Assembly (NCBI GenBank): GCA_964630525.1
Contig: CAZVUY010000002.1
Location: 33,760 to 97,759 of the forward strand
From: an uncultured Candidatus Saccharibacteria bacterium
GTDB lineage: Bacteria > Patescibacteriota > Minisyncoccia > Phycocordibacterales > WO2-35-19
Direction: 5' to 3'
Length of the DNA stretch: 64,000 nt
The first letter of the stretch is position 1, and each line of letters starts with the position of its first letter. Position numbers and translations under genes: made by a program. Of the stretch, positions 10,530-64,000 are shown in pieces. Below the pieces are notes generated by a model, which saw only the letters and a list, made by a program, of their open reading frames with translations, was not told the origin of the DNA and did no database searches.

Positions 10530-11495
10530 TTACCGGGTGAATGGGTCGGTGAACCGGACCTCTACGGTCATCGGTTCCTTTTCCTTATGCCGGAAGCTGA
10601 ATGTTCTTGGCACAACGTCCAAGTTTAGCACCTCGCCACACCCGAAGACCTTCTGGTCGTCTTCGTCGGCTCGGATTTCGCAACCTTCCTGCTTGTTCGG
10701 GTACCAACGAACCTTCTCAAACCGCCGGTCGTTGTTGACGACCGGGCTCCACTCTCCGTCTTTCGAAGCCACCTCTTCTTTTCTAGAGGAGGGTGGCACC
10801 TTCGTGTCTGGACTATAACCGAGAGCCATAAGTTTTGGCCCCCAGCAGGCCCGGCCGCCGCCAAACTGCTCGTCGTGGTCCCAGGGACCAAAATCTTCTT
10901 TCTCGTACAAGTACGAGAAGTATCGATCCTGTCCCTCCTCAGTATTCAGGTCGAAACCGAGATCGAGAGCGGGCTTGCGATGCATTTCCCGGAATTGGTA
11001 CTTCCCGAAAGCATCGGAAGGTTTGATTCCCTTGGAGGGAATGCCTTTGTTCCGAGTTGGGATTTTGTTTCCCTTGTCATCTAGGACAAAGTTCCCATCC
11101 TTACCCTTCTCGAATTGTTGGCAGTTGGTCTCACACTCACAGACCACTCGCCGCGCCACTTCAAGAGGAACGCGAGTGGCCTGTGCTACTACTGGTCTTT
11201 GTAGGTACTGCTTATTGTCCCTGGTCCAGAAGTAATAACCCGCGAATGCGAGGCAAATTACTACCGGCGTTGCTACCAACCATTTGACTGGTAAATTTTT
11301 GGACGACCCCCCACTTTTTGCTTGTTGTGGTGGTAGGGTAGTTCGCGGTTGTTGTTGAGGGGGTTCTTGAGCAGGAGTCTGCTTTTTGTAAGGATCAATC
11401 TTCCTGTCTCCGCCCCCAAAAAACTCTTCTCTTTTGTACATAAAACCAAATACAAAGAGAAGAAAGATGAAACCTAAGGCTCCCCAGAATTCCAT
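10530..11495 (-). CDS. hypothetical membrane-anchored protein (GC-rich, foreign-looking)
   Basis: 321 aa; N-terminal TM, Pro/Gln-rich linker, second TM, Cys-containing globular part; local GC clearly above the surrounding genome. Confidence 0.5.
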   Translation of the reverse strand: MEFWGALGFIFLLFVFGFMYKREEFFGGGDRKIDPYKKQTPAQEPPQQQPRTTLPPQQAKSGGSSKNLPVKWLVATPVVICLAFAGYYFWTRDNKQYLQRPVVAQATRVPLEVARRVVCECETNCQQFEKGKDGNFVLDDKGNKIPTRNKGIPSKGIKPSDAFGKYQFREMHRKPALDLGFDLNTEEGQDRYFSYLYEKEDFGPWDHDEQFGGGRACWGPKLMALGYSPDTKVPPSSRKEEVASKDGEWSPVVNNDRRFEKVRWYPNKQEGCEIRADEDDQKVFGCGEVLNLDVVPRTFSFRHKEKEPMTVEVRFTDPFTR

Positions 11496-13437: not shown

Positions 13438-13457
13438 TGTGCTGGGGAGGAGACTTG
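13438..13457. repeat. 20-nt direct repeat of the tRNA-Leu(TAG) 3' end (TGTGCTGGGGAGGAGACTTG)
   Basis: identical to 13595-13614 (T-arm 3' half plus acceptor 3' strand of the minus-strand tRNA-Leu); the two copies bracket 136 bp. Confidence 0.8.
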
Positions 13458-13596
13458 GTCACGCATAAAATTTTGCTAAATTTTTGCTCGACCCCGGCTC
13501 GGCTCGTCAGCCTCCGCCTTTCAAGTCAGTCTTACGCTTTTTTAAATTAAAAAAGCTAGACCCTCCCTAGCATAAAAATTCGCTAGGCTCATTTTG

Positions 13597-13679
13597 TGCT
13601 GGGGAGGAGACTTGAACTCCTAATCCACAAGGGAACTAGTTCCTAAGACTAGCGCGTATACCAATTCCGCCACCCCAGC
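13597..13679 (-). tRNA. tRNA-Leu (anticodon TAG)
   Basis: GCTGGGGTGGCGGAATTGGTATACGCGCTAGTCTTAGGAACTAG + long variable arm + GGAGTTCAAGTCTCCTCCCCAGCA. Confidence 0.85.
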
Positions 13680-21261: not shown

Positions 21262-21689
21262 CAGAACTCCTCTCTGTTTCGTAAAATAGCATTATTTAAA
21301 CTTTTTTCAAACTTTGATGCGCCGTCTGGTACGATGTTGGAACTTACTTAATACAAATAGCTTGACCTCAAAAAATCTGTATGATAGTTTACCGTTGGTT
21401 CAATTAACATGTCTTGGTGCCAAAACAAGGGCGAGCCTTGCTAGGGACTCAGCTTTTCGCGAGGGAAGTTTGGGTGAACGGTTCGACTCCGTTTGCGTGG
21501 GTTGAAAGCTTACTTGGTGATGCGCAGAATAGGTGGGAGATTTGGATTTCAAGGTTTCGGTCTTGAGGGAGTCGACAATGAGATACCACCCTTACCGAGG
21601 ACAAGTCTTTCTCTTGAAAAAGAAAGATGCCGGAAACTTTTTGAACCACTGGGCTTTCCTAACGGACGGCCCTTTACTTTTATCTAAAA

Positions 21690-21845
21690 TGGTGCGCCGG
21701 GAGGGAATTTCTCCCTCGACTCAAAATTTTTTCAGTCAAAAAATTTTGGTCTGGGCACCGGCTCATGGAAATTTTTTGCTAAAAATTTCACATTCCGCCG
21801 TTCGAATCCCTCACGCAAAGCAAGCAGTTGCTTTGCTCCGGCGCA
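21690..21845. repeat. structured repeat element A (~155 nt), homologous to element B at 60893-61050; ends form a 7-bp closing stem
   Basis: ~80% identity to 60893-61050 with compensatory changes in three hairpins; contains core GGAAATTTTTTGCTAAAAATTTC; 5' end TGCGCCGGGAGGGA repeats the tRNA-Tyr 3' end; on the minus strand it ends GAGGGAGAAATTCCCTCCCGGCGCACCA. Confidence 0.6.
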
Positions 21846-21878
21846 CAAAATGAAAACCCCTTTCGGGGATTCATTTTG

Positions 21879-21962
21879 TGCGCCGGGAGGGATTCGAACC
21901 CCCGTAGCCCGATGGGCGACAGATTTACAGTCTGTTGTAATTGACCACTCTACCACCGACGC
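21879..21962 (-). tRNA. tRNA-Tyr (anticodon GTA), long variable arm
   Basis: GCGTCGGTGGTAGAGTGGTCAATTACAACAGACTGTAAATCTGTCGCCCATCGGGCTACGGGGGTTCGAATCCCTCCCGGCGCA; followed by a 24-bp trailer hairpin (21831-21890) that includes the tRNA 3' end. Confidence 0.85.
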
Positions 21963-41409: not shown

Positions 41410-42309
41410 TTATGTAAGTCTAATTTCGCCTAGAGTTTCTTTGATAAGACCTTTGAGTTCTAGTAGTGAGAGGAGCATTTGGGTTTCGCTGGTCGGAGTC
41501 TGGTGCTCGTCTTTCATGGTGCGGAGTATTTGGTCTCTCGGTAGTGGCTCGCTCAAAATTTTGATAACTAGCATTTCTTTTTCGGAGCAGTCGAAATATT
41601 TGGTATCGTCCGCTGTGGTGTTGGTGGAAGCGGACTGATTTTCCAAATGTAGCGCTTCCAAAATATCGTCGCTCTGGCGGATCGGGGTGGCACCGAGGCG
41701 TATCAGAAGGTGCGGCCCTTCACCGGTTGTATTGAAAATACTGTGGGGGACAGTGAGCACGTCGCGGTTGTATTCGGTCGCCAGTCTGGCGGTGATCAGG
41801 GTGCCAGACTTTTTCTCTGCTTCGATCACCAAGGTGGCGTGGCTCATGCCAGCCATGATTCGGTTGCGCTGGGGGAAACTCCAATAAGTCGCTTTGAACT
41901 CCGGTTCGAATTCATTGAGCAGAGTGCCACCCTGCTCAACTATTTTTTGAGCCAGCAAGGCGTTGGATTGGGGATGCAATACTTCGAGTGCGAGGCCGGA
42001 GCCGGGTACGGCGATGGTTGGCAGGTTGTTCCTGAGGGCGGCTTCGTGAGCCAAAGCGTCGATACCAAGGGCAAGACCGGAGACGATGCTGACCGGGTAA
42101 TTCTTCAGGCCGTCGATCAAACTTGAGACCACCTCTTTGCCGTAACCAGTGTATTTTCGAGCGCCGACTACGCAGAGTAATTTGCGGCTCCAATCGGGCA
42201 ATTGCCCGGCATAAAAAAGTTTTTCCGGCAGCTGGTTGATCTCTTCAAGCAGTGGCGGCCAGTTTGAACGAGTGAGAGTTTTTATTTCGTATCGAGCAGT
42301 ATTTGCCAT
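41410..42309 (-). CDS. dprA: DNA-processing protein DprA (Smf)
   Basis: LLCVVGARKYTGYGKEVV...IVSGLALGIDALAHEAAL Rossmann-like DprA core, C-terminal winged helix. Confidence 0.85.
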   Translation of the reverse strand: MANTARYEIKTLTRSNWPPLLEEINQLPEKLFYAGQLPDWSRKLLCVVGARKYTGYGKEVVSSLIDGLKNYPVSIVSGLALGIDALAHEAALRNNLPTIAVPGSGLALEVLHPQSNALLAQKIVEQGGTLLNEFEPEFKATYWSFPQRNRIMAGMSHATLVIEAEKKSGTLITARLATEYNRDVLTVPHSIFNTTGEGPHLLIRLGATPIRQSDDILEALHLENQSASTNTTADDTKYFDCSEKEMLVIKILSEPLPRDQILRTMKDEHQTPTSETQMLLSLLELKGLIKETLGEIRLT

Positions 42310-49763: not shown

Positions 49764-49780
49764 TATTTTATTATTTTTAT

Positions 49781-49897
49781 GACTTACGCAAAAATAGTTC
49801 TTGAGCGAGATTCCGGAAGCTGCCGGAAAGCTGAGGACAAGGAAATTTTTAGCAAAAAATTTCCGTATCGAGCGAAAGAAACTATTTTGGAGTAAGT
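49781..49897. repeat. palindromic repeat element C (117 bp), inverted orientation relative to S
   Basis: GACTTACGCAAAAATAGTTCTTGAGCGAG ... CTATTTTGGAGTAAGTC; reverse complement aligns with element S except for a 38-bp internal deletion; contains GGAAATTTTTAGCAAAAAATTTCC. Confidence 0.75.
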
Positions 49898-49911
49898 CTT
49901 ATTTTTTTGAA

Positions 49912-55685: not shown

Positions 55686-57071
<1,386 letters not shown>

Positions 57072-57103
57072 GAAAGTCAGAAAATAAAAAGTAAAAAATA
57101 GAT

Positions 57104-57367
57104 ATGAATTTAAAAGTTGTGACACCAGACGGAGTAGTTTGGAATGCAGAAGTGGATTTCGTCAATCTCAAGACGACTCTTGGCGAGATCACTGTTTTAC
57201 CCAAACACATACCACTAATAACAACTCTAGAATTTGGGATGGTACGGGTCCGGAGCGATGGTCGCGATTTTCGAGCCGAATGTTCGGGTGGCGTGCTTGA
57301 GGTTAAAAAAGACAGTCAGGCGATAATCATAACTGAACATTGCTCCAAGTTTCTCGCTGAAGAATAA
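57104..57367 (+). CDS. atpC: F0F1 ATP synthase subunit epsilon (beta-sandwich domain only)
   Basis: 87 aa, MNLKVVTPDGVVWNAEVDFV start typical of epsilon; lacks C-terminal helical hairpin. Confidence 0.8.
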   Translation: MNLKVVTPDGVVWNAEVDFVNLKTTLGEITVLPKHIPLITTLEFGMVRVRSDGRDFRAECSGGVLEVKKDSQAIIITEHCSKFLAEE

Positions 57368-57374
57368 GAAATTT

Positions 57375-57971
57375 TTAGATTTGATTAGGCTGCGGAATAA
57401 ATTTGAAAGACTGAAGAAGCGGTTCAAAATCGCGATAAAGATTTGAGTTTGTGTCTAAGTAGGCTCCACTGATCACATACATGTTTTCTCCGTGAGCGAC
57501 CACTATGTTGTTTGACCGGTAGAGCCCGTCAGCAGAATATCTGATCGCATTTGCACCACCAAGGACCGTCTCTTCCATGTCTCCTAGTTCAAGATTGATA
57601 TTGGTCCACTCTATATTTTCGCTAGACCAAACCAGCGGCCACTGTTTTTTAGTGTTTTTGACTACGTGAATAGTGATGGTGGCCGGCCCTTCGCCGAATT
57701 CTCCATTGTTTTGCAAGCCCACCTCATCAGTTTTTTGCATCAAGACCAATGTTTTTAGTAAGTTTGGATTGGTGCTGACTGTTTGAGGGTCTTTTTCGAT
57801 CAGGGTGTAACCCTCTGGTTCGATGCGATATTGAAATTCAAAACCGAGTTCCGGGCTGGAAAAAGTTTGATAAGTAGCGACCGTTTTGTTGGCACCATTT
57901 TTAGGCTTTAGAAACCAGTATCCAGCAGACGCAACAAGCAAAACAAGAATAATGACAAATATTTTTTTCAT
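57375..57971 (-). CDS. hypothetical exported/anchored protein
   Basis: 198 aa, N-terminal signal/TM. Confidence 0.45.
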   Translation of the reverse strand: MKKIFVIILVLLVASAGYWFLKPKNGANKTVATYQTFSSPELGFEFQYRIEPEGYTLIEKDPQTVSTNPNLLKTLVLMQKTDEVGLQNNGEFGEGPATITIHVVKNTKKQWPLVWSSENIEWTNINLELGDMEETVLGGANAIRYSADGLYRSNNIVVAHGENMYVISGAYLDTNSNLYRDFEPLLQSFKFIPQPNQI

Positions 57972-58015
57972 GACCCAATATTAGCAAATTTTTATGATCT
58001 CTGACAAATAAAACC

Positions 58016-58492
58016 TTACTTCATCACTGCATAGGTGAAGAGTACGCTAAATTTTTTGCACCAAATAACGACAGTCTGATAATCCTCTGTACCCACTGGC
58101 AATTCATAATTTTGGTTGCCTTGGGTGCCTTTGAGTAGACCCAAATTAACAAAGTCGCCGAGACTTTCAATATCATTGGTTGGAGCAGAGGAATTTGATA
58201 GATATACATACAGATCCGGGCCGCTGGTCACGCTAAAATCTTCGAGCCGGATAAACTGTTTGCCATCGACTTCTACCAGCTTTGCTGTACCCGATCCCTT
58301 GTGAATAAAATCTATTTCTCCGAATGTTCCCGAAGCCAAAGTTTTCGATTCGCTCAGCGTCCCTTGCGTCTGGTTAGTTGGGGTCGGTAGAGTTTCTTGC
58401 ACTTCTGTTTTAATAAAATAAGTATAAACGCCACTCCAGTATACGAAAAATCCGATCGCCAATATCACCAAAACTAAAATAATCTTTTTCAT
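58016..58492 (-). CDS. DM13-domain-like membrane-anchored protein
   Basis: 158 aa; GTFGEIDFIHKGSGTAKLVEVDG pattern resembles DM13. Confidence 0.5.
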   Translation of the reverse strand: MKKIILVLVILAIGFFVYWSGVYTYFIKTEVQETLPTPTNQTQGTLSESKTLASGTFGEIDFIHKGSGTAKLVEVDGKQFIRLEDFSVTSGPDLYVYLSNSSAPTNDIESLGDFVNLGLLKGTQGNQNYELPVGTEDYQTVVIWCKKFSVLFTYAVMK

Positions 58493-58593
58493 TTTTTAAG
58501 GTTTGTAGTTTTTTATAAATTAAAAATCTTTTATTTCTATATTTTCCGGCAAATCTCTTTCAGAAACCTCAATCACTTCTAATTGCTATCTCT

Positions 58594-59037
58594 TTATTTT
58601 TGGTCTTTGATTAGGCTGCCAACATACTCCTCAAATTCTTTCATGTCTTCACTACAATTTTCCAAATGCTCGTAGTTATCTGATACGAGTTTAGAGTATT
58701 GAAGTAGTCTGTCCCTCACTTCATCGGACATAGGTTTAGCCCATTCTGTTTTCCAGATCTCTCCTTCCACCTCGTCAATCTCGCCTTTATCTATCCACTT
58801 GGTGTGTCTCTTATTTAGAAATTTACCATCTTTAAGTTCAATTACATCCCATTCAGCGGTTGGATTAATTTCTTCTTGGTTATCTGCAATGTAGTCTTTT
58901 TTATCAGTAAGAACTTGTTTAGTAATTCTCTGACCTTTTATAATGTAGTCAAAAGAAATTGCCTCCTTATCGTTCAAGCCAACACTGATAAAGAAAGTGT
59001 TGGAGGGACTAGGGTTGTAATCTACATCTATATACAT
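58594..59037 (-). CDS. hypothetical acidic protein
   Basis: 147 aa, AT-rich. Confidence 0.45.
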   Translation of the reverse strand: MYIDVDYNPSPSNTFFISVGLNDKEAISFDYIIKGQRITKQVLTDKKDYIADNQEEINPTAEWDVIELKDGKFLNKRHTKWIDKGEIDEVEGEIWKTEWAKPMSDEVRDRLLQYSKLVSDNYEHLENCSEDMKEFEEYVGSLIKDQK

Positions 59038-59045
59038 TCTGTTTA

Positions 59046-59375
59046 TTATTCTCTGGTTAGTTTGAAATCAACCATTTTCACAATAGTATCTGGGGTGACT
59101 TTGTCACCGTAGTACTTTCTGTATGTCTCATACATTTTTTCATCGCTTTCAAATTTTTCGTGCCCCTCAAAATCGCTTTCTTCCAAATCTTTGAGTTTCT
59201 TTTCTTCTATTTTGGTTATTACTGCTTTGGCAAATTCTTCTTTTGTTTCCCAATTCAAAAGAGATAATTCGTCTCCTTCTTTCAAATCTTTATCGTCAAA
59301 CAATCTCCATGTACAAGTTTTTTCTCCTCTCAGCACAAGTGGGATTAAATAAGGTCTAAATTTAACTGTTTTCAT
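59046..59375 (-). CDS. ASCH-domain-like small protein
   Basis: KTVKFRPYLIPLVLRGEKTCTWR N-terminus resembles ASCH/PUA-like fold. Confidence 0.5.
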   Translation of the reverse strand: MKTVKFRPYLIPLVLRGEKTCTWRLFDDKDLKEGDELSLLNWETKEEFAKAVITKIEEKKLKDLEESDFEGHEKFESDEKMYETYRKYYGDKVTPDTIVKMVDFKLTRE

Positions 59376-59479
59376 AAAACTAGTCTAAACGAATTTTTTA
59401 TAAAAGAAAACCCCCTAGAATAAAGAGGTGAGTTGGTTATCTAATTTATCACTTCAGAACTAATTTATTCAAAACAAAA

Positions 59480-59815
59480 AGCCCTCGCATTCCCCGAATG
59501 GGTACTAGCTTGGGCTGGGTGGGTTACAGACTATATTCGTGCTGTTGAGGGAGAAGTCTGGATTCCCTCGCACTAGCTCACTGGGTGAGCAAAGAACTGG
59601 TCGGGGTAAGTAATAGTTTAGGTTCCTATCACTACGACTTACCCCACGGAAGACAGAAAACGGAAAACAGCATATTGTCGGTCAACTCCTTTAGGAACCT
59701 ATCAGGAATATCACGACTCACCCCTGTCGTATCACTCTAAGACCGAAGGACGTCTTTCGAGAGCTCGATTTGCGCTTACTGCATTGCCAAGGTCTAAATC
59801 GAGATGAATAACCCT
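59480..59815 (-). ncRNA. candidate ~335-nt structured RNA with own promoter and terminators; identity unknown
   Basis: minus-strand TTGACA-N16-TATACT (plus coords 59822-59852); upstream terminator (59890-59915) ends the preceding gene; GC-rich stems (GGGGTAAGT...ACTTACCCC; AGGTTCCT/AGGAACCT); U-rich tail CTTTTTGTTTTG near 59480; no ORF >20 aa. Confidence 0.35.
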
Positions 59816-59932
59816 GGCACCATTAGTATAACAAATCGGCATTTTTTGTCAATCATAAAACACATTTTGTAAATGTCAAAAGCAGAAAAGCCTTATAAAA
59901 TAAGGGTATTTTAGGAAGTTAGAAAAAATGAG

Positions 59933-60241
59933 TTAAGATTTGGTAATCTTCCTTTTTACAGAATCAACAAACAACCTGAAAGCGGGTCGTTTTTCCTTTT
60001 CGTAAATGATTTTAACTCCAAGCAGATGACCTTTAGGACAAGATAGGTCTTTTTTCAGAATAGAAACTTTAGGCTCCATAATTCTATCTATATACATTCT
60101 CCTAAGATTCCCTGGCCCATCTTTTTGGTAGAGGCAAATATTTGCCCCACACTTCTCGCAAAACATTCTTAGTAGCCTAGAGTAGCCTCCCCTGGCTTGT
60201 TTATATTTATCTCTTTTAAAGACAACTTTGTTCATATCCAA
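59933..60241 (-). CDS. hypothetical small Cys-containing (zinc-ribbon-like) protein
   Basis: 102 aa; CEKCG...C...CPKGH spacing. Confidence 0.45.
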   Translation of the reverse strand: MDMNKVVFKRDKYKQARGGYSRLLRMFCEKCGANICLYQKDGPGNLRRMYIDRIMEPKVSILKKDLSCPKGHLLGVKIIYEKEKRPAFRLFVDSVKRKITKS

Positions 60242-60286
60242 ATCGTATTTGAATAAAGGTAAGTTGTAAAGAAAAAACTCAATTTT

Positions 60287-60796
60287 TTATTGATTGATAA
60301 TATTCATAACTAGTTCAAATGTTTCCTCGATGCTCTTTTGTGTAGTATCAATTTGTATAAAATCTAAATCCTCCTTGCTCTTAAAGAAACCAATATTTTT
60401 TCTTACCTGTTCTTCAGATGTTGGGTTATCCCAATTTTTCATCCTTTCTATTATCCTTTTGAATGCAACTTCAGGATTAGCAAACATTTGAATTTTGTAG
60501 ATTGGAACAGAATATTCTTTCGCAATATTTTCATATATATCTATTTCATTTGATCTAATTGGTTGATCTACAATTACAGAAATGTTGTTGCGGAGATATA
60601 TTTTTGTGGCTTCAATAATGATTTCTCTCCCAATATTGTTGTCTCTGTCGCCTCGTTCAAAATCATTGATAAACAGTTTAACTTTATCTAGCCCTATAGT
60701 CGCAAGTCTTGGAATTCTTCCTGCTAGTTTATTTGATACGGTAGTTTTGCCTGACCCGGTCATTCCGTCCAGCAGCAGTAGAAATGGTGTCCTCAT
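60287..60796 (-). CDS. P-loop NTPase / small-molecule kinase-like protein (AAA_33 / zeta-toxin-like fold)
   Basis: 169 aa; Walker A LLLDGMTGSGKTT, Walker B-like VIVDQ. Confidence 0.6.
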   Translation of the reverse strand: MRTPFLLLLDGMTGSGKTTVSNKLAGRIPRLATIGLDKVKLFINDFERGDRDNNIGREIIIEATKIYLRNNISVIVDQPIRSNEIDIYENIAKEYSVPIYKIQMFANPEVAFKRIIERMKNWDNPTSEEQVRKNIGFFKSKEDLDFIQIDTTQKSIEETFELVMNIINQ

Positions 60797-60892
60797 AAAT
60801 TACAGTATAACAAAAGTTCACATAATTTTTAAATATATTTTCCAGGAGCAACAACAAAAAACCGCCCTATAAGGGCGATTTTCATGTTGGCT

Positions 60893-61050
60893 GCTCCGGG
60901 AGCAGGGGGTATCTCCCTCGACTCAAAAATTTGTCGGCCACAAATTTTTGGTCTAGGCACCGGCTCGCTAAATTTTGTGCTCAAAATTTTCAGCTCCGCC
61001 GTTCGATCCCTGACGAAAGTGCAATTCAATGCACTTTCTCTCCTCGGAGC
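60893..61050. repeat. structured repeat element B (copy of element A)
   Basis: aligns with 21694-21844 at ~80% identity with compensatory hairpin changes (CAAAGCAAG..CTTGCTTTG vs GAAAGTGCA..TGCACTTTC); closing stem GCTCCG/CGGAGC. Confidence 0.6.
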
Positions 61051-61213
61051 CACAAATGACAAAACCGCTTTGCAAAAGGCAAAACGGTTTGTGTCAGTGG
61101 CTCGCACTGGCTGACGATTTTAGAACGATAGATTGGGTCAGCGAGTATCCTTATCCTACCATAGCCCTAGCCGAGATAAAGGCATTACTGGAAGAAGTTC
61201 AAACCGTCTAAAA

Positions 61214-61591
61214 ATGAAAGAGGGTAACCAGACATTTAGTAGTAAAGATGTTGTGGAGGGGTTGGTAGAACTTTTGAATGCTAAAGAATATAAAAAATCT
61301 TCACTATCTCCGAGATTTACAATTCAAGAAATAAGTTTTTTGGCTGATATTATTTTCAATAAACCTTACGAGAATATACCATTGGCATTTGTGGAATACA
61401 TAGAAAAGAGTTTTATGATGGGTGTCCGTCTTACAAGTCCCATGACATACAGACGCATCCAATTTTATAAACACTTAGTTTTGACTCGTGGTAATGCCAA
61501 GAAAGCTGCTATTTCCGCAGGCTATAGTCCAGTTGGAGCTAAACAGCAAGCGTATAGGATATTGAAAAACTTTGGGAAAGGTCTTCGGTAA
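61214..61591 (+). CDS. hypothetical HTH protein with a phage terminase small-subunit-like C-terminal helix (start at MKEGNQ; track ORF begins 61133 inside element B)
   Basis: TRGNAKKAAISAGYSPVGAKQQAYRILKN resembles the Terminase_2 GNATQAAIRAGYS...N helix. Confidence 0.4.
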   Translation: MKEGNQTFSSKDVVEGLVELLNAKEYKKSSLSPRFTIQEISFLADIIFNKPYENIPLAFVEYIEKSFMMGVRLTSPMTYRRIQFYKHLVLTRGNAKKAAISAGYSPVGAKQQAYRILKNFGKGLR

Positions 61592-61622
61592 GCAAAAGTA
61601 AACATTTTTTATAAAAGAAAGA

Positions 61623-61650
61623 GCGCCACCCGAAGATGGCGCCCTGCGAT
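61623..61650 (-). terminator. intrinsic terminator for the GC-rich minus-strand gene
   Basis: GCGCCA-CCCGAAGA-TGGCGC; on the minus strand followed by TCTTTCTTTTATAAAAAA. Confidence 0.55.
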
Positions 61651-61663
61651 CAGATTGAACTGA

Positions 61664-62986
61664 TCAATACGGCTTCAGAAAGGAACACTGGTAGTCGAGT
61701 CGGATCGGCTGGTTGGCCGCCTTGGCAATGCCGACACATTCGCGGATTTGCGTCTTGCGCTCCTCCACGAGCTGCTTGAGAGACTGCTTGCGTTCTCGAT
61801 CGTTCTTGCCCTGAGCTCGAGAAGCGAGGACCTTCTCGTTGAAACACTTGTCCTCACCAAACTGCTCTGCGATCGCAGCGGCAATGCCGAAGTTTCCGGC
61901 AATGACCGCCTTGTCGAAAGTCAGAGCAGCACACTCGTCCAGACTGACCTTCTCGTTATCACCATACTTCGGGAAGAACACCTCACCCACCAAGTAGTTG
62001 ACGTGGTAAGCGTATGCGAGCTTGCCCTCAGCCAGCTTGTCTGCAAGCCAGTTGATGAGCTTGGAACGAAGCGTCGGATCAGTGTTCATGCCGTGCTTGG
62101 CAATGACTGCCGCGATGTATGCATGACTCATGTAGCTGTCGATCACCCTGTCGGTCATCTCACACATGAGCTTCCTCAACCGAACGCTGTCGGATCCCCA
62201 CGGCAAGACCTGCGATTCGAGAACCGCGGCCATGTAGTAGAGATCGAGGCCGCCCTTCTTGAACTTCTCGATCCACTGGAAGAACGCTTCCTGCACCTCC
62301 TCTCTGCTCATACCGAGCTCTTGGAGGCGCTTTGCGAGGGCGCGATACTTCATTGCGTTGTGGTCGATATTCTCCTCGAGAGCACCGTGATCATCATGAT
62401 AAGTGTGGTACTTCTTCGGAAGAGTGAGACCGAGCCATTCGGCATAAAACTTTTCGCCGAGGTAGTCGGTGAGGTGGTTGCTCTCGTAGAAATACGCGAG
62501 CAATATCCATCGCTCGATCTGGTCCGCGAACTTCTTGTTCTTGGGCCGATACTGCTCGAAGACCTTGCGAGTGGCGCTGATTTCCCACGAGCCAACCCAA
62601 GACTCAATGACTCTCAAGTTGACCGGATTGATCTCAATCGCCTTGGCCAGAAGGCGCTCGATGAAGCTCCTCGTCTGGCGCTCCTTCCACCCGAAAAACT
62701 TTGCAATTCCCGGAATGGTGAAGAAGCAGGACTTATCGAGAGAGTAGACGACGGGGTCGCCCTTCTCACTACGATCAAACTCGGCTGAGTCGATCTGGGT
62801 GGCATCCGCACGATACGGATTCTGAAAGAAGATGCCATTGTCGACGAGAGCGTTGAGCTCCGTCAAAGCATCAATCTTGAGATTCTTCTGGAAAAGCAGT
62901 CGAAGCCGCTCTCCCGGATTCTCGATGAATGCCAACTGGCGTCTGGTCTCCTCAACGGCTGCGCCGCTGATTGTTGCGTTTCTCAT
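61664..62986 (-). CDS. hypothetical protein, GC-rich foreign-looking gene (start at MRNATISG with AAGGAG RBS; track ORF extends to 63016)
   Basis: ~441 aa; strong codon periodicity; the 346-aa plus-strand ORF 61748..62788 is its shadow; composition unlike the rest of the window. Confidence 0.6.
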   Translation of the reverse strand: MRNATISGAAVEETRRQLAFIENPGERLRLLFQKNLKIDALTELNALVDNGIFFQNPYRADATQIDSAEFDRSEKGDPVVYSLDKSCFFTIPGIAKFFGWKERQTRSFIERLLAKAIEINPVNLRVIESWVGSWEISATRKVFEQYRPKNKKFADQIERWILLAYFYESNHLTDYLGEKFYAEWLGLTLPKKYHTYHDDHGALEENIDHNAMKYRALAKRLQELGMSREEVQEAFFQWIEKFKKGGLDLYYMAAVLESQVLPWGSDSVRLRKLMCEMTDRVIDSYMSHAYIAAVIAKHGMNTDPTLRSKLINWLADKLAEGKLAYAYHVNYLVGEVFFPKYGDNEKVSLDECAALTFDKAVIAGNFGIAAAIAEQFGEDKCFNEKVLASRAQGKNDRERKQSLKQLVEERKTQIRECVGIAKAANQPIRLDYQCSFLKPY

Positions 62987-63269
62987 TTCTTGCTCCTTGT
63001 GCGTGCTCTGTCCCATTCGGGCGAGCGTGCTCTATAGGGGTTGAAGTTGTACTCACCAATTGCACAAACTCTTTCGGGAAGTCCCTACGAAGTTTGGCAA
63101 GGAAGTATGTGGCACGTGCCTGACGGCGCGGCCAACGGAACGCTGCAAGTTCTTGAGCCCGATTCGGATTGTTATCCTTGGCGAACCCAACGAGCTCTGG
63201 ATACCCGAGGGCACCCATACACTCTTTTTTCAATTCTTCGAGTTGGTTTTGAGGGCCATCTCGAGGCAT
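62952..63269 (-). CDS. hypothetical small protein, GC-rich, probably co-transcribed with 61664..62986
   Basis: 105 aa; AAAGGAG RBS 6 nt upstream; overlaps the downstream gene start by ~35 nt. Confidence 0.45.
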   Translation of the reverse strand: MPRDGPQNQLEELKKECMGALGYPELVGFAKDNNPNRAQELAAFRWPRRQARATYFLAKLRRDFPKEFVQLVSTTSTPIEHARPNGTEHAQGARNEKRNNQRRSR

Positions 63270-63343
63270 TGTTTACTCCTTTCTGACAAAGGACTTACTG
63301 GCTACAATTGTAGCACGATATAGCAAAAATTGCAATAGCGGTT

Positions 63344-64000
63344 CTATTTTCTAAAATCATTCAGATATTTACTAAAAACACGCCGAAAAAGAAGAGTTTT
63401 TTCATAAAGCCAGGTAAAATTGTTTGCAATTTCAATTTTAGAGAATAGGTCAGATATTTCTTTCTTAATTACAATACGAGAAGCTACTGCGGCATCTATC
63501 CACTCTGCTTTTACTCCAAGTTCTTTCTCAATTTCATCCATATGATCTTTCAAATAACTGAACAGGTCTTTGTTTCTGTTTATGTATATCTCACAACCAA
63601 GCAGATTTTTACGAGAATCGATTGTGAGTGCTATATGAGCGTCAGAAATCCCAATACTAATATTATACCAGTGTTGTGGGCGTGGTGAGTGACCAAAGTG
63701 AGTCTTTGGATCTTTACTTTTTACATAGTCCTTGAATCTAGTCCAAAAATCTAGTTGTTGTAACTTAGTTTCAGTAAGTTCTCCACCAGCTGGGCCAGAT
63801 TTTATTGCTTTGGCCCATTCATTAGGACTAACAATCACTTCAAACTTTGGAGCAGGATTTGAACCTTCAATTTGCCACAGTTCTACTTTGATCAGAAAGA
63901 ATCCAGTTTTTTCGTCAGTATGTTCATTGAGCCATTCTACTGCTCGCTGATGTTCATCTCTAAAATCCCGAACGATCCAAATAATTATTTCTGCGTCGTA
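63344..64000 (-). CDS. DUF4268-like protein, 5'-truncated by window edge
   Basis: reading frame stays open upstream of the track Met (63838) to the window end (...YDAEIIIWIVRDFRDEHQRAVEWLNEHTDEKTGFFLIKVELWQIEGSNPAPKFEVIVSPNEWAK...); pattern typical of DUF4268. Confidence 0.55.
   Translation of the reverse strand, partial: YDAEIIIWIVRDFRDEHQRAVEWLNEHTDEKTGFFLIKVELWQIEGSNPAPKFEVIVSPNEWAKAIKSGPAGGELTETKLQQLDFWTRFKDYVKSKDPKTHFGHSPRPQHWYNISIGISDAHIALTIDSRKNLLGCEIYINRNKDLFSYLKDHMDEIEKELGVKAEWIDAAVASRIVIKKEISDLFSKIEIANNFTWLYEKTLLFRRVFSKYLNDFRK

Follow-up and report, generated by a model that had tools for sequence, protein, structure and literature searches.

Genomic islands at transfer RNA genes (tDNA islands) split genes for transfer RNA (tRNA) or transfer-messenger RNA (tmRNA), restore them and leave a displaced gene fragment behind (PMC4383910), and for phage Ms6 a crossover in the T loop has been documented (PMC1762012). 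Here, we describe elements of a related design but of far smaller size. We have analyzed a stretch of 64,000 nucleotides from an uncultured Candidatus Saccharibacteria bacterium (contig CAZVUY010000002.1, positions 33,760 to 97,759; termed the window), whose minus strand carries three such elements: copy A behind tRNA-Tyr, the orphan copy B and copy C behind tRNA-Leu. They are probably members of a Patescibacteria-wide group of miniature, protein-less integrative elements that reside in the 3' ends of tRNA and tmRNA genes and are mobilized in trans. As in tDNA islands (Islander definition) and prophages with tyrosine integrases (PMC4383910, PMC1762012), the 3' part of the gene is targeted and the gene is restored by the element, the displaced fragment is a direct repeat beginning within the T loop, sites occur in both empty and occupied form and tandem arrays stand at a single tRNA. 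In contrast to these islands, which measure kilobases, the inserted unit has only about 110-190 bp and contains no open reading frame (ORF), hence neither a tyrosine or serine integrase of its own nor any other gene. Inside the unit lie its target in inverted copy and a conserved, covarying body of several hairpins, and one core family addresses more than 14 targets.

The units have a common layout. We call X the tRNA gene's 3' end, T loop to discriminator, and rc(X) its reverse complement. The first half of the unit consists of X, a small, usually terminator-like hairpin and rc(X), which is split by hairpin hp1; the second half consists of a conserved core with two covarying hairpins and a second, direct copy of X. 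The 5' part of the element is thus the reverse complement of the adjacent tRNA segment, T loop included, as can be seen in the window, where the T loop UUCAAGU of tRNA-Leu is matched by its complement ACUUGAA in copy C. In every copy hp1 is placed exactly at the acceptor/T-stem junction of rc(X), and the T-stem strand of the tail pairs with the covarying 5' segment of the element. Other tRNA genes are indeed followed by similar units: for 30 of 38 hits of a covariance model (CM), a tRNA or tmRNA gene stands upstream on the same strand at a distance of 32-250 nt. The partners are tRNAs for Tyr, Trp, Asn, Gln, Lys, Gly, Ala, Glu, Ser, Val, Leu, Arg and Pro as well as tmRNA. In 27 of the 59 distinct tRNA and tmRNA genes of the collected loci, 12 nt or more of the gene end (12-33 nt) recur as a direct repeat, displaced 105-270 nt downstream in most cases; the tRNA-Tyr and tRNA-Leu genes of the window are among them. 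The repeat starts in the T loop, directly after TTCGAA in type-1 elements and a few bases earlier in type 2, and it ends at the discriminator plus 0-3 nt, occasionally beyond. Occupancy is patchy, with 2 of 9 tRNAs in the window versus 4 of 4 in locus L018.

Support for mobility comes from orthologous tRNA-Tyr sites. Homologues of the ClpB protein encoded in the window, which place its organism among Zambryskibacteria-like bacteria, led to eight syntenic loci of the order Trypsin-ClpB-gap-MurC, seven of which have tRNA-Tyr in the gap. Locus L059 is an empty site in which the CCA is encoded; the gene end ...CCCTCCCGGCGCACCA is joined there to ATTTAATTAC, so that the site reads ...GCGCACCA followed by ATTTAA. 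The tail of copy A reads ...GCGCACCA followed by TTTTAGATAA and thus has the same CCA-bearing end. Since the empty allele itself encodes CCA, the CCA of the tail is the original gene end. The element is also absent from L056, L057 and L058, while L060 has a type-2 element alone, directly 3' of tRNA-Tyr. L055 contains the type-2 element of L060 with its hairpin and, between this and tRNA-Tyr, a complete type-1 unit of about 185 nt with TCCCTCCCGGCGCAC at its flanks. From the comparison of L055 and L060 it follows that hairpin, rc(X), hp1, core and one X entered an already occupied site beside the tRNA. At least two insertions were independent, because the type-1 body of the window stands in a CCA-bearing virgin flank and its terminator loop differs from that in L055. 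Tandem arrays are present in L010, L020, L029, L018 and L047; orphan elements beside decayed tRNA fragments and an internal deletion derivative were found as well. These alleles demonstrate insertion with gene regeneration at the 3' ends of tRNA and tmRNA genes and arrays that grow from the tRNA side. The idea of a tRNA-tied miniature mobile element, one of several raised in the initial annotation, which was made from the sequence alone, is therefore supported by occupied and empty alleles at orthologous tRNA-Tyr genes and by the many tRNA and tmRNA targets.

The single-strand fold of the tRNA-sense strand is under strong selection. RNAalifold on 28 copies yields the helices P3+hp2 and P4+hp3 with compensatory change in 18 of 30 pairs. 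When 38 copies were aligned to the CM, 95.1% of the cells pair, versus 69.1% in shuffles and 35-52% with slid partners, and double changes occur in 25 of 29 pairs, including 'conserved' helices in diverged copies. In this alignment G.U or U.G cells number 54 (22 without one conserved G.U), as opposed to 10 A.C or C.A cells, although both the G.U count and the paired percentage are inflated because the alignment is fitted to the model strand. The counts favor the tRNA-sense strand as the folded one and disfavor an RNA from the opposite strand. Locus L047, whose ClpB is 86% identical to that of the window, differs from the window over the body of about 150 nt by one compensatory pair only, whereas the tRNA variable arm and the adjacent terminator hairpin diverge much more. 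The loops have preferred sequences as well: often CUGC in hp1, ANNA (AGCA) in hp2, and GACG/GRCUG or a 12-nt loop with tandem G.A in hp3. Selection on secondary structure, proposed from copies A and B, is thus confirmed by covariation for the single-strand fold. A kissing interaction between the loops of hp1 and hp2 was dropped, as alignments inspected by eye revealed no covariation, and a hepatitis delta virus-like or other small ribozyme was dropped because the resemblance is short and no CM hit was obtained.

The features of the window are the following.

21690-21892, minus strand: copy A, downstream of tRNA-Tyr.
21879-21962, minus strand: tRNA-Tyr(GUA), the target gene (ARAGORN; Rfam tRNA 58.4 bits); 3' end intact, encoded CCA absent.
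21878-21892, minus strand: left direct repeat X' (TCCCTCCCGGCGCAC) within the tRNA-Tyr gene, from T-loop position ~60 to the discriminator +1.
21847-21877, minus strand: terminator-like hairpin between tRNA-Tyr and body (terminator scan).
21838-21846, minus strand: acceptor part of rc(X) (GUGCGCCGG), the complement of the tRNA-Tyr acceptor 3' strand; it complements both X copies and forms the closing helix P1 with the tail.
21816-21835, minus strand: hairpin hp1 with variable stem, loop often CUGC (alignment).
21794-21812, minus strand: rc(T stem + T loop) plus core1 (GAGGGAUUCGAAC-GGCGGA); GAGGGAUUCGAAC is the complement of the T-stem 3' strand, T loop and G53 of tRNA-Tyr, and this first part covaries with the neighboring tRNA.
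21765-21793, minus strand: hairpin hp2 with covarying stem and ANNA (AGCA) tetraloop (covariation).
21748-21764, minus strand: core2 (GAGCCGGUGCCCAGACC), which contributes the 3' strand to helix P3 and to helix P4 the 5' strand.
21723-21747, minus strand: hairpin hp3 with covarying stem and GACG/GRCUG loop (covariation).
21707-21722, minus strand: core3 (GAGUCGAGGGAGAAAU), adjoining the right repeat (alignment).
21690-21706, minus strand: right direct repeat X, followed by CA; this is where the original end of tRNA-Tyr, its encoded CCA included, lies after displacement, then original flank.
60888-61053, minus strand: copy B, type-1 element (CM 104.5 bits); an orphan, the window having no tRNA for it.
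61062-61090, minus strand: terminator-like hairpin upstream of copy B; before it stands a 7-nt left-repeat remnant (GAGCCAC).
60857-60883, minus strand: strong terminator-like hairpin just downstream of the copy B tail (terminator scan).
13438-13594, minus strand: copy C, diverged type-2 element downstream of tRNA-Leu(UAG) (13596-13679); CM 14.6 bits, E 0.0016, local search.
13595-13614 and 13438-13457, minus strand: 20-nt direct repeat CAAGTCTCCTCCCCAGCACA of copy C, a repeat of the tRNA-Leu 3' end.

Copies A and B had been noticed as two structured elements of about 155 nt with compensatory stem changes, and both observations hold: the minus-strand alignment has a mean column identity of 77%, the copies fold much better than shuffles (z -6.4 to -8.2) and paired changes affect all three hairpins. 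The order of the parts is identical in the two copies. Core motifs of 17 and 21 nt occur in the window only at copies A and B, with chance expectations of 0.35 and 0.01. The closing helix of copy B is GCUCCG-AGGAG / CUCC-CGGAGC, and its tail is similar to a tRNA-Asn-type 3' end. In copy A the direct repeat of the tRNA-Tyr end is confirmed for the last 15 nt, TCCCTCCCGGCGCAC, which recur at 21692-21706, where the CA after the repeat completes ACCA. The hairpin described between the tRNA-Tyr 3' end and its trailer is real too, with 21 pairs and -39.7 kcal/mol; it is formed by X' and rc(X), and the terminator-like hairpin is its loop. Other parts of the initial annotation have to be revised. The T-arm/acceptor/CCA end finds no support as a designed RNA end, as acceptor strand, discriminator and CCA are the displaced tRNA-Tyr end known from L059; the local GAGGG/CCCTC 'T stem' is there because tRNA-Tyr happens to have that T stem, and such a local T arm is not conserved, since GAGGGAGA is the constant core motif across the family while the neighboring T stems vary. 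The claim of a palindromic repeat family with the core GGAAATTTTTnnnnAAAAATTTC does not hold: in copy A this sequence is hp2 itself, copy B has a covarying hp2 variant, and elsewhere in the window the sequence occurs just once, at 49842, where 0.27 occurrences are expected by chance. Copy C is a third member of the family in the window that had not been listed before. A candidate fourth copy at 10708-10766 was rejected, as it lies inside a coding region and scores 4.7 bits.

Further copies of the element are numerous. An exact two-block pattern was scanned over 185,579 species genomes and gave 22 loci, 14 of them in Patescibacteria (Zambryskibacteria, Paceibacterota/Parcubacteria and Saccharibacteria), each with the whole architecture; the remaining 8 are GC-rich, non-Patescibacteria and without the other parts of the element. 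Another 31 loci came from a metagenome scan, of which about 28 are real. The covariance model (R1), built on the element core and searched against the collected loci, returned 64 hits at E<=1, including diverged type-2 copies, tandem pairs and the weak hit to copy C. Pattern scans and covariance model together give about 40 distinct relatives, in Patescibacteria only. Rfam 15 at its gathering thresholds has no match for any element type and reports tRNAs only in the window, both copy regions and six element-rich loci; the match to tmRNA, tRNA-like RNA or 6S RNA that the initial annotation had considered is thus not there, and permissive scans gave nothing meaningful either. Membership among tRNAs was judged by a cloverleaf with anticodon arm and T loop and a CM score of at least 29 bits; ARAGORN and Rfam call the neighboring tRNAs and none on the elements, even at E<=10. 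A tmRNA or permuted tmRNA was rejected, since ARAGORN makes no such call in the window and tmRNA_permuted reaches 10.5 bits, where the gathering score is 47. Genuine tmRNAs in L005 and L026 stand upstream of elements. Full-text searching of the literature found no description of such elements, and the family is apparently undescribed. It is best filed as a widespread, miniature non-coding variant of tRNA/tmRNA-gene-targeted integrative elements with a conserved structured core.

There are instructive parallels to elements that recombine as folded DNA. In integron attC sites with their cassette arrays (PMC5027507) and in the attP(+) site of CTX-phi with XerCD (PMC3442271), structure and strand outweigh stem sequence, a hairpin stem imitates the double-stranded partner site, the newest unit stands beside the fixed site and the enzyme is encoded elsewhere; the integrated form is alike as well, with a direct repeat beside an inverted copy and the remaining element behind them. 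The strand asymmetry is also of this type, as hp1 interrupts one arm only. By analogy, we infer that the family elements may use single-stranded DNA (ssDNA). In contrast to attC and dif-type sites, the core sites RYYYAAC / GTTRRRY and dif-like XerC/XerD arms are absent, the junctions read from the alignment being ...ATTCGAAC and GAGAAAT followed by X. The unpaired cores of the family are strongly conserved, the repeats have 15-20 nt, the target is a tRNA gene and not attI or dif, and no IntI was seen. Miniature inverted-repeat transposable elements (MITEs) share with the family that they are small, non-coding, multi-copy, structured and reliant on an enzyme encoded elsewhere. However, the family has no fixed terminal inverted repeats (the terminator side differs from core3), its sole inverted pair X/rc(X) changes with each target, and its repeat is a gene end of 12-33 nt, whereas MITE target duplications have 2-10 bp; no related autonomous insertion sequence with a transposase was seen in about 0.43 Mb of loci or in two viral scans. 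The tRNA-like RNAs (tmRNA domain, viral tRNA-like structures, YrlA, mascRNA) resemble the family in that the closing helices have the length and the sequence of stacked acceptor and T stems and end in a discriminator (with or without CCA). Unlike them, the elements are matched by neither Rfam nor ARAGORN and possess neither a T loop nor a conserved T arm; their 5' strand simply complements the 3' strand, and the tRNA-like end is derived from the host.

How might such an element integrate? In the process that we favor, the inserted unit brings its own copy of the gene 3' end (X', usually without CCA), and because of this the tRNA stays intact. The former gene end, in many cases together with CCA and a terminator of its own, is shifted downstream and becomes the tail. 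New units enter beside the tRNA, and arrays thus grow with the youngest copy in the proximal position. Integration would be a conservative site-specific recombination within the 15-20 bp identity X, by a recombinase that presumably acts in trans and is encoded elsewhere, since no enzyme gene is linked to the elements. The single-stranded fold may be needed by the recombination machinery or in the element life cycle; the X/rc(X) helix might mimic the double-stranded target, with the structured body closing it. Either ssDNA, as in integron attC or CTX-phi attP, or a transcript could be the form in which the fold acts. A gene for the DNA-processing protein A, DprA, lies in the window at 41410-42309 (minus strand) and would be relevant if incoming ssDNA aids the spread of the element.

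Several points weigh against this process. Pfam and PHROGs searches of 49 nearby proteins revealed no integrase, reverse transcriptase, TnpB or transposase near any copy, and all-against-all clustering of 250 flanking ORFs revealed no recurrent family besides syntenic housekeeping genes; the neighbors of the elements are housekeeping genes. No free, circular or autonomous form was found. Of two viral scans for phage carriers, the first gave nothing and the second one partial match of 21 bits. This match to the 5' half of the type-1 core (L054, 291-372) lies on an IMG/VR contig of a GC-rich phage that has genes for terminase and portal; it shares 22 identical nt (CGAACGGCGGAATGTGAAATTT) with copy A, of which 11 were not imposed by the search pattern, and GAGCCGGTGCC comes next, overlapping an ORF end. 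A double-stranded circle of 170-190 bp would moreover be a poor substrate for a classical integrase, and every element has to possess X and rc(X) of its own tRNA beforehand, which leaves more than 14 target specificities within one core family unaccounted for. The exact position of hp1 and the retained closing helix of orphans, kept in L007 through two G.U pairs, look like design at the RNA level. The inflation of the pairing and G.U values belongs here as well.

In an alternative view, the elements would be a host or domesticated structured non-coding RNA of about 150 nt, transcribed with or after the tRNA, whose closing helices copy the acceptor/T-stem stack of the neighboring tRNA while a conserved three-way-junction core takes the place of the T loop. 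Its role would be tRNA-related, for instance in processing or as decoy or antisense control of the tRNA 3' third, and the insertion signature would reflect how the gene spreads and not its purpose. Strong covariation, the conserved loops CUGC, AGCA and GACG with tandem G.A, the G.U bias toward the tRNA-sense strand, hp1 at the acceptor/T junction in all copies, the closing helix retained in the orphans B, L007 and L012, and a body that is better conserved between relatives than the tRNA variable arm are all in line with it. In the tRNA-Gln copies no terminator intervenes between tRNA and body, so that they are probably co-transcribed with the tRNA, which speaks against the purely integrative interpretation, and terminators follow many element tails. 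In most loci, however, a good intrinsic terminator borne by the element stands directly upstream of the body and leaves no room for a promoter; no promoter of its own lies between terminator and body, and together this argues against efficient transcription. Several copies with high scores (L038/L047, L043) have a closing helix with a degenerate acceptor part, and the 5' strand is the Watson-Crick complement of X instead of a copy of the tRNA 5' strand. Mimicry of the aminoacylation type is unlikely because tmRNA G3.U70 and tRNA-Tyr U4.G69 are lost, and an aminoacylatable minihelix was dropped for the loss of these wobble identity pairs. Patchy occupancy, seen in the two occupied tRNAs among nine in the window and in an orthologous tRNA-Tyr site where the element is present, absent or swapped, does not fit a host RNA well, nor does the occupation of the same slot by unrelated cores. 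We consider this explanation rather unlikely.

Two further explanations fare worse. The tail and the tRNA-complementary segment could stem from reverse transcription involving a mature tRNA, either tRNA-primed or tRNA-like-tagged. About one third of the tails have a CCA while the adjacent tRNA gene has none, rc(X) is similar to a primer-binding site, and the closing stem with hairpins and an AG(C) after the stem are reminiscent of retron non-coding RNA (msr-msd with its a1/a2 stem). But neither a reverse transcriptase gene near any copy nor a recurrent neighbor gene was found, rc(X) complements the genomic CCA-less flank and not ...CCA, and CCA is present in about 10 of 28 tails, close to the about 6 of 24 element-free tRNA genes in the same loci. 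As the empty allele L059 encodes CCA itself, this origin is largely refuted and very improbable. The same low standing applies to inert scars, that is decaying attL/attR remnants of larger prophages or islands in which A and B would be alike by descent and the hairpins would be degenerating inverted repeats. The att-like direct repeats, some truncated or internally deleted copies and partial tRNA fragments nearby would fit. Yet a body of 110-130 nt is conserved across Saccharibacteria, Zambryskibacteria and Paceibacterota with compensatory change in 25 of 29 pairs, a site that was already occupied received the unit in complete form (L055 versus L060), and no large-island version was seen. Of the remnant att site considered in the initial annotation, the att-like direct repeat thus stands, whereas the conserved and structured 130-nt body is no remnant. 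We therefore stay with miniature elements mobilized in trans. A bolder and more tentative view takes them as the smallest integrative elements known, 'naked attachment sites' of about 170 nt that parasitize a recombinase and find their tRNA-gene target by rc(X), which a folded single strand of DNA or RNA would present along with the conserved three-way-junction core, or else takes the conserved core as a novel functional RNA that is linked to tRNAs and moves about in cassette form; this is possible, but we hold it with less confidence.

Some loci show additional arrangements. The tRNA-Tyr gene and its elements are inverted relative to ClpB and MurC in L056, L058 and L062 compared with the window, L055, L057, L059 and L060, and the gene orders suggest recurrent inversion at this locus. 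In L019 two copies (1079-1184 and 2373-2481, both minus) that have a tRNA-Gln repeat in common are separated by 1.1 kb, with a 329-aa ORF without Pfam match between them; in the distal copy hp2-core2-hp3 is deleted between two AAAATTTTGAG repeats. This arrangement could be cargo-carrying or nested. Longer displaced tRNA fragments, from the anticodon stem onward, adjoin type-1 elements in L043 (5330-5440) and L016 (7880-7960), and their extent suggests a second integration class with a putative anticodon-loop crossover at the same genes. In L029 (10826-11150) an 85-nt module of tRNA-Leu 3' end, hairpin and reverse complement occurs identically twice with two unrelated cores behind it, and thus the slot accepts different core families. 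L007 and L050 contain GC-rich long-range complementarity (GAAGCCCCACGCACTG...CAGTGCGTGGGGCTTTC) that ends in GGTTCGAGC, 100-400 nt upstream of the element; this region may be another structured RNA or a decayed tRNA- or tmRNA-like gene.

Within the window, the 430 nt or so between copy A and a 110-aa ORF without family match (21262-21690) hold no convincing ORF, and a T-arm-like AACGGTTCGACTCCGTT lies inside on the plus strand near 21478-21494. The stretch may be decayed element DNA, since the equivalent space in L047 and L055 holds further tandem elements. Around copy B (57000-64000) the G+C content falls to 0.37-0.40, and small accessory-like genes are found there (DM13, ASCH, an AAA_33 kinase, DUF4268) together with a 152-aa protein with a helix-turn-helix like that of terminase small subunits and a 450-aa protein without match. 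This region may be an island. With regard to a prophage, Pfam and PHROGs gave just one borderline helix-turn-helix match, to a small terminase subunit. Between the gene for Dus, a tRNA dihydrouridine synthase, and the next ORF lies a hairpin-closed structure of about 110 nt (49775-49900, plus strand; ACTTACGCAAAAATAGTT...AACTATTTTGGAGTAAGT) that includes GGAAATTTTTAGCAAAAAATTTCC, an hp2-like hairpin with AGCA loop. It may be another structured element.

Patescibacteria, members of the candidate phyla radiation (CPR), have tiny, streamlined genomes, and despite this some of their contigs have one unit behind nearly every tRNA gene. At present, displaced tRNA ends may be misread as tRNA fragments and cores as spurious ORFs. 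The conserved core represents a new family of structured nucleic acids with excellent covariation; since Rfam lacks it, it would improve the annotation of CPR genomes. The sequence of insertion events can be read from the arrays, which could be used as markers of lineages. Provided that the elements move as we propose, they would be a minimal form of tRNA-gene-targeted integration and a tractable means to learn which recombinase is used by CPR bacteria and if folded single strands are its substrate. Should the view of naked attachment sites hold true, they would represent a new, CPR-specific class of protein-less mobile elements that depend on structure or on a guide.

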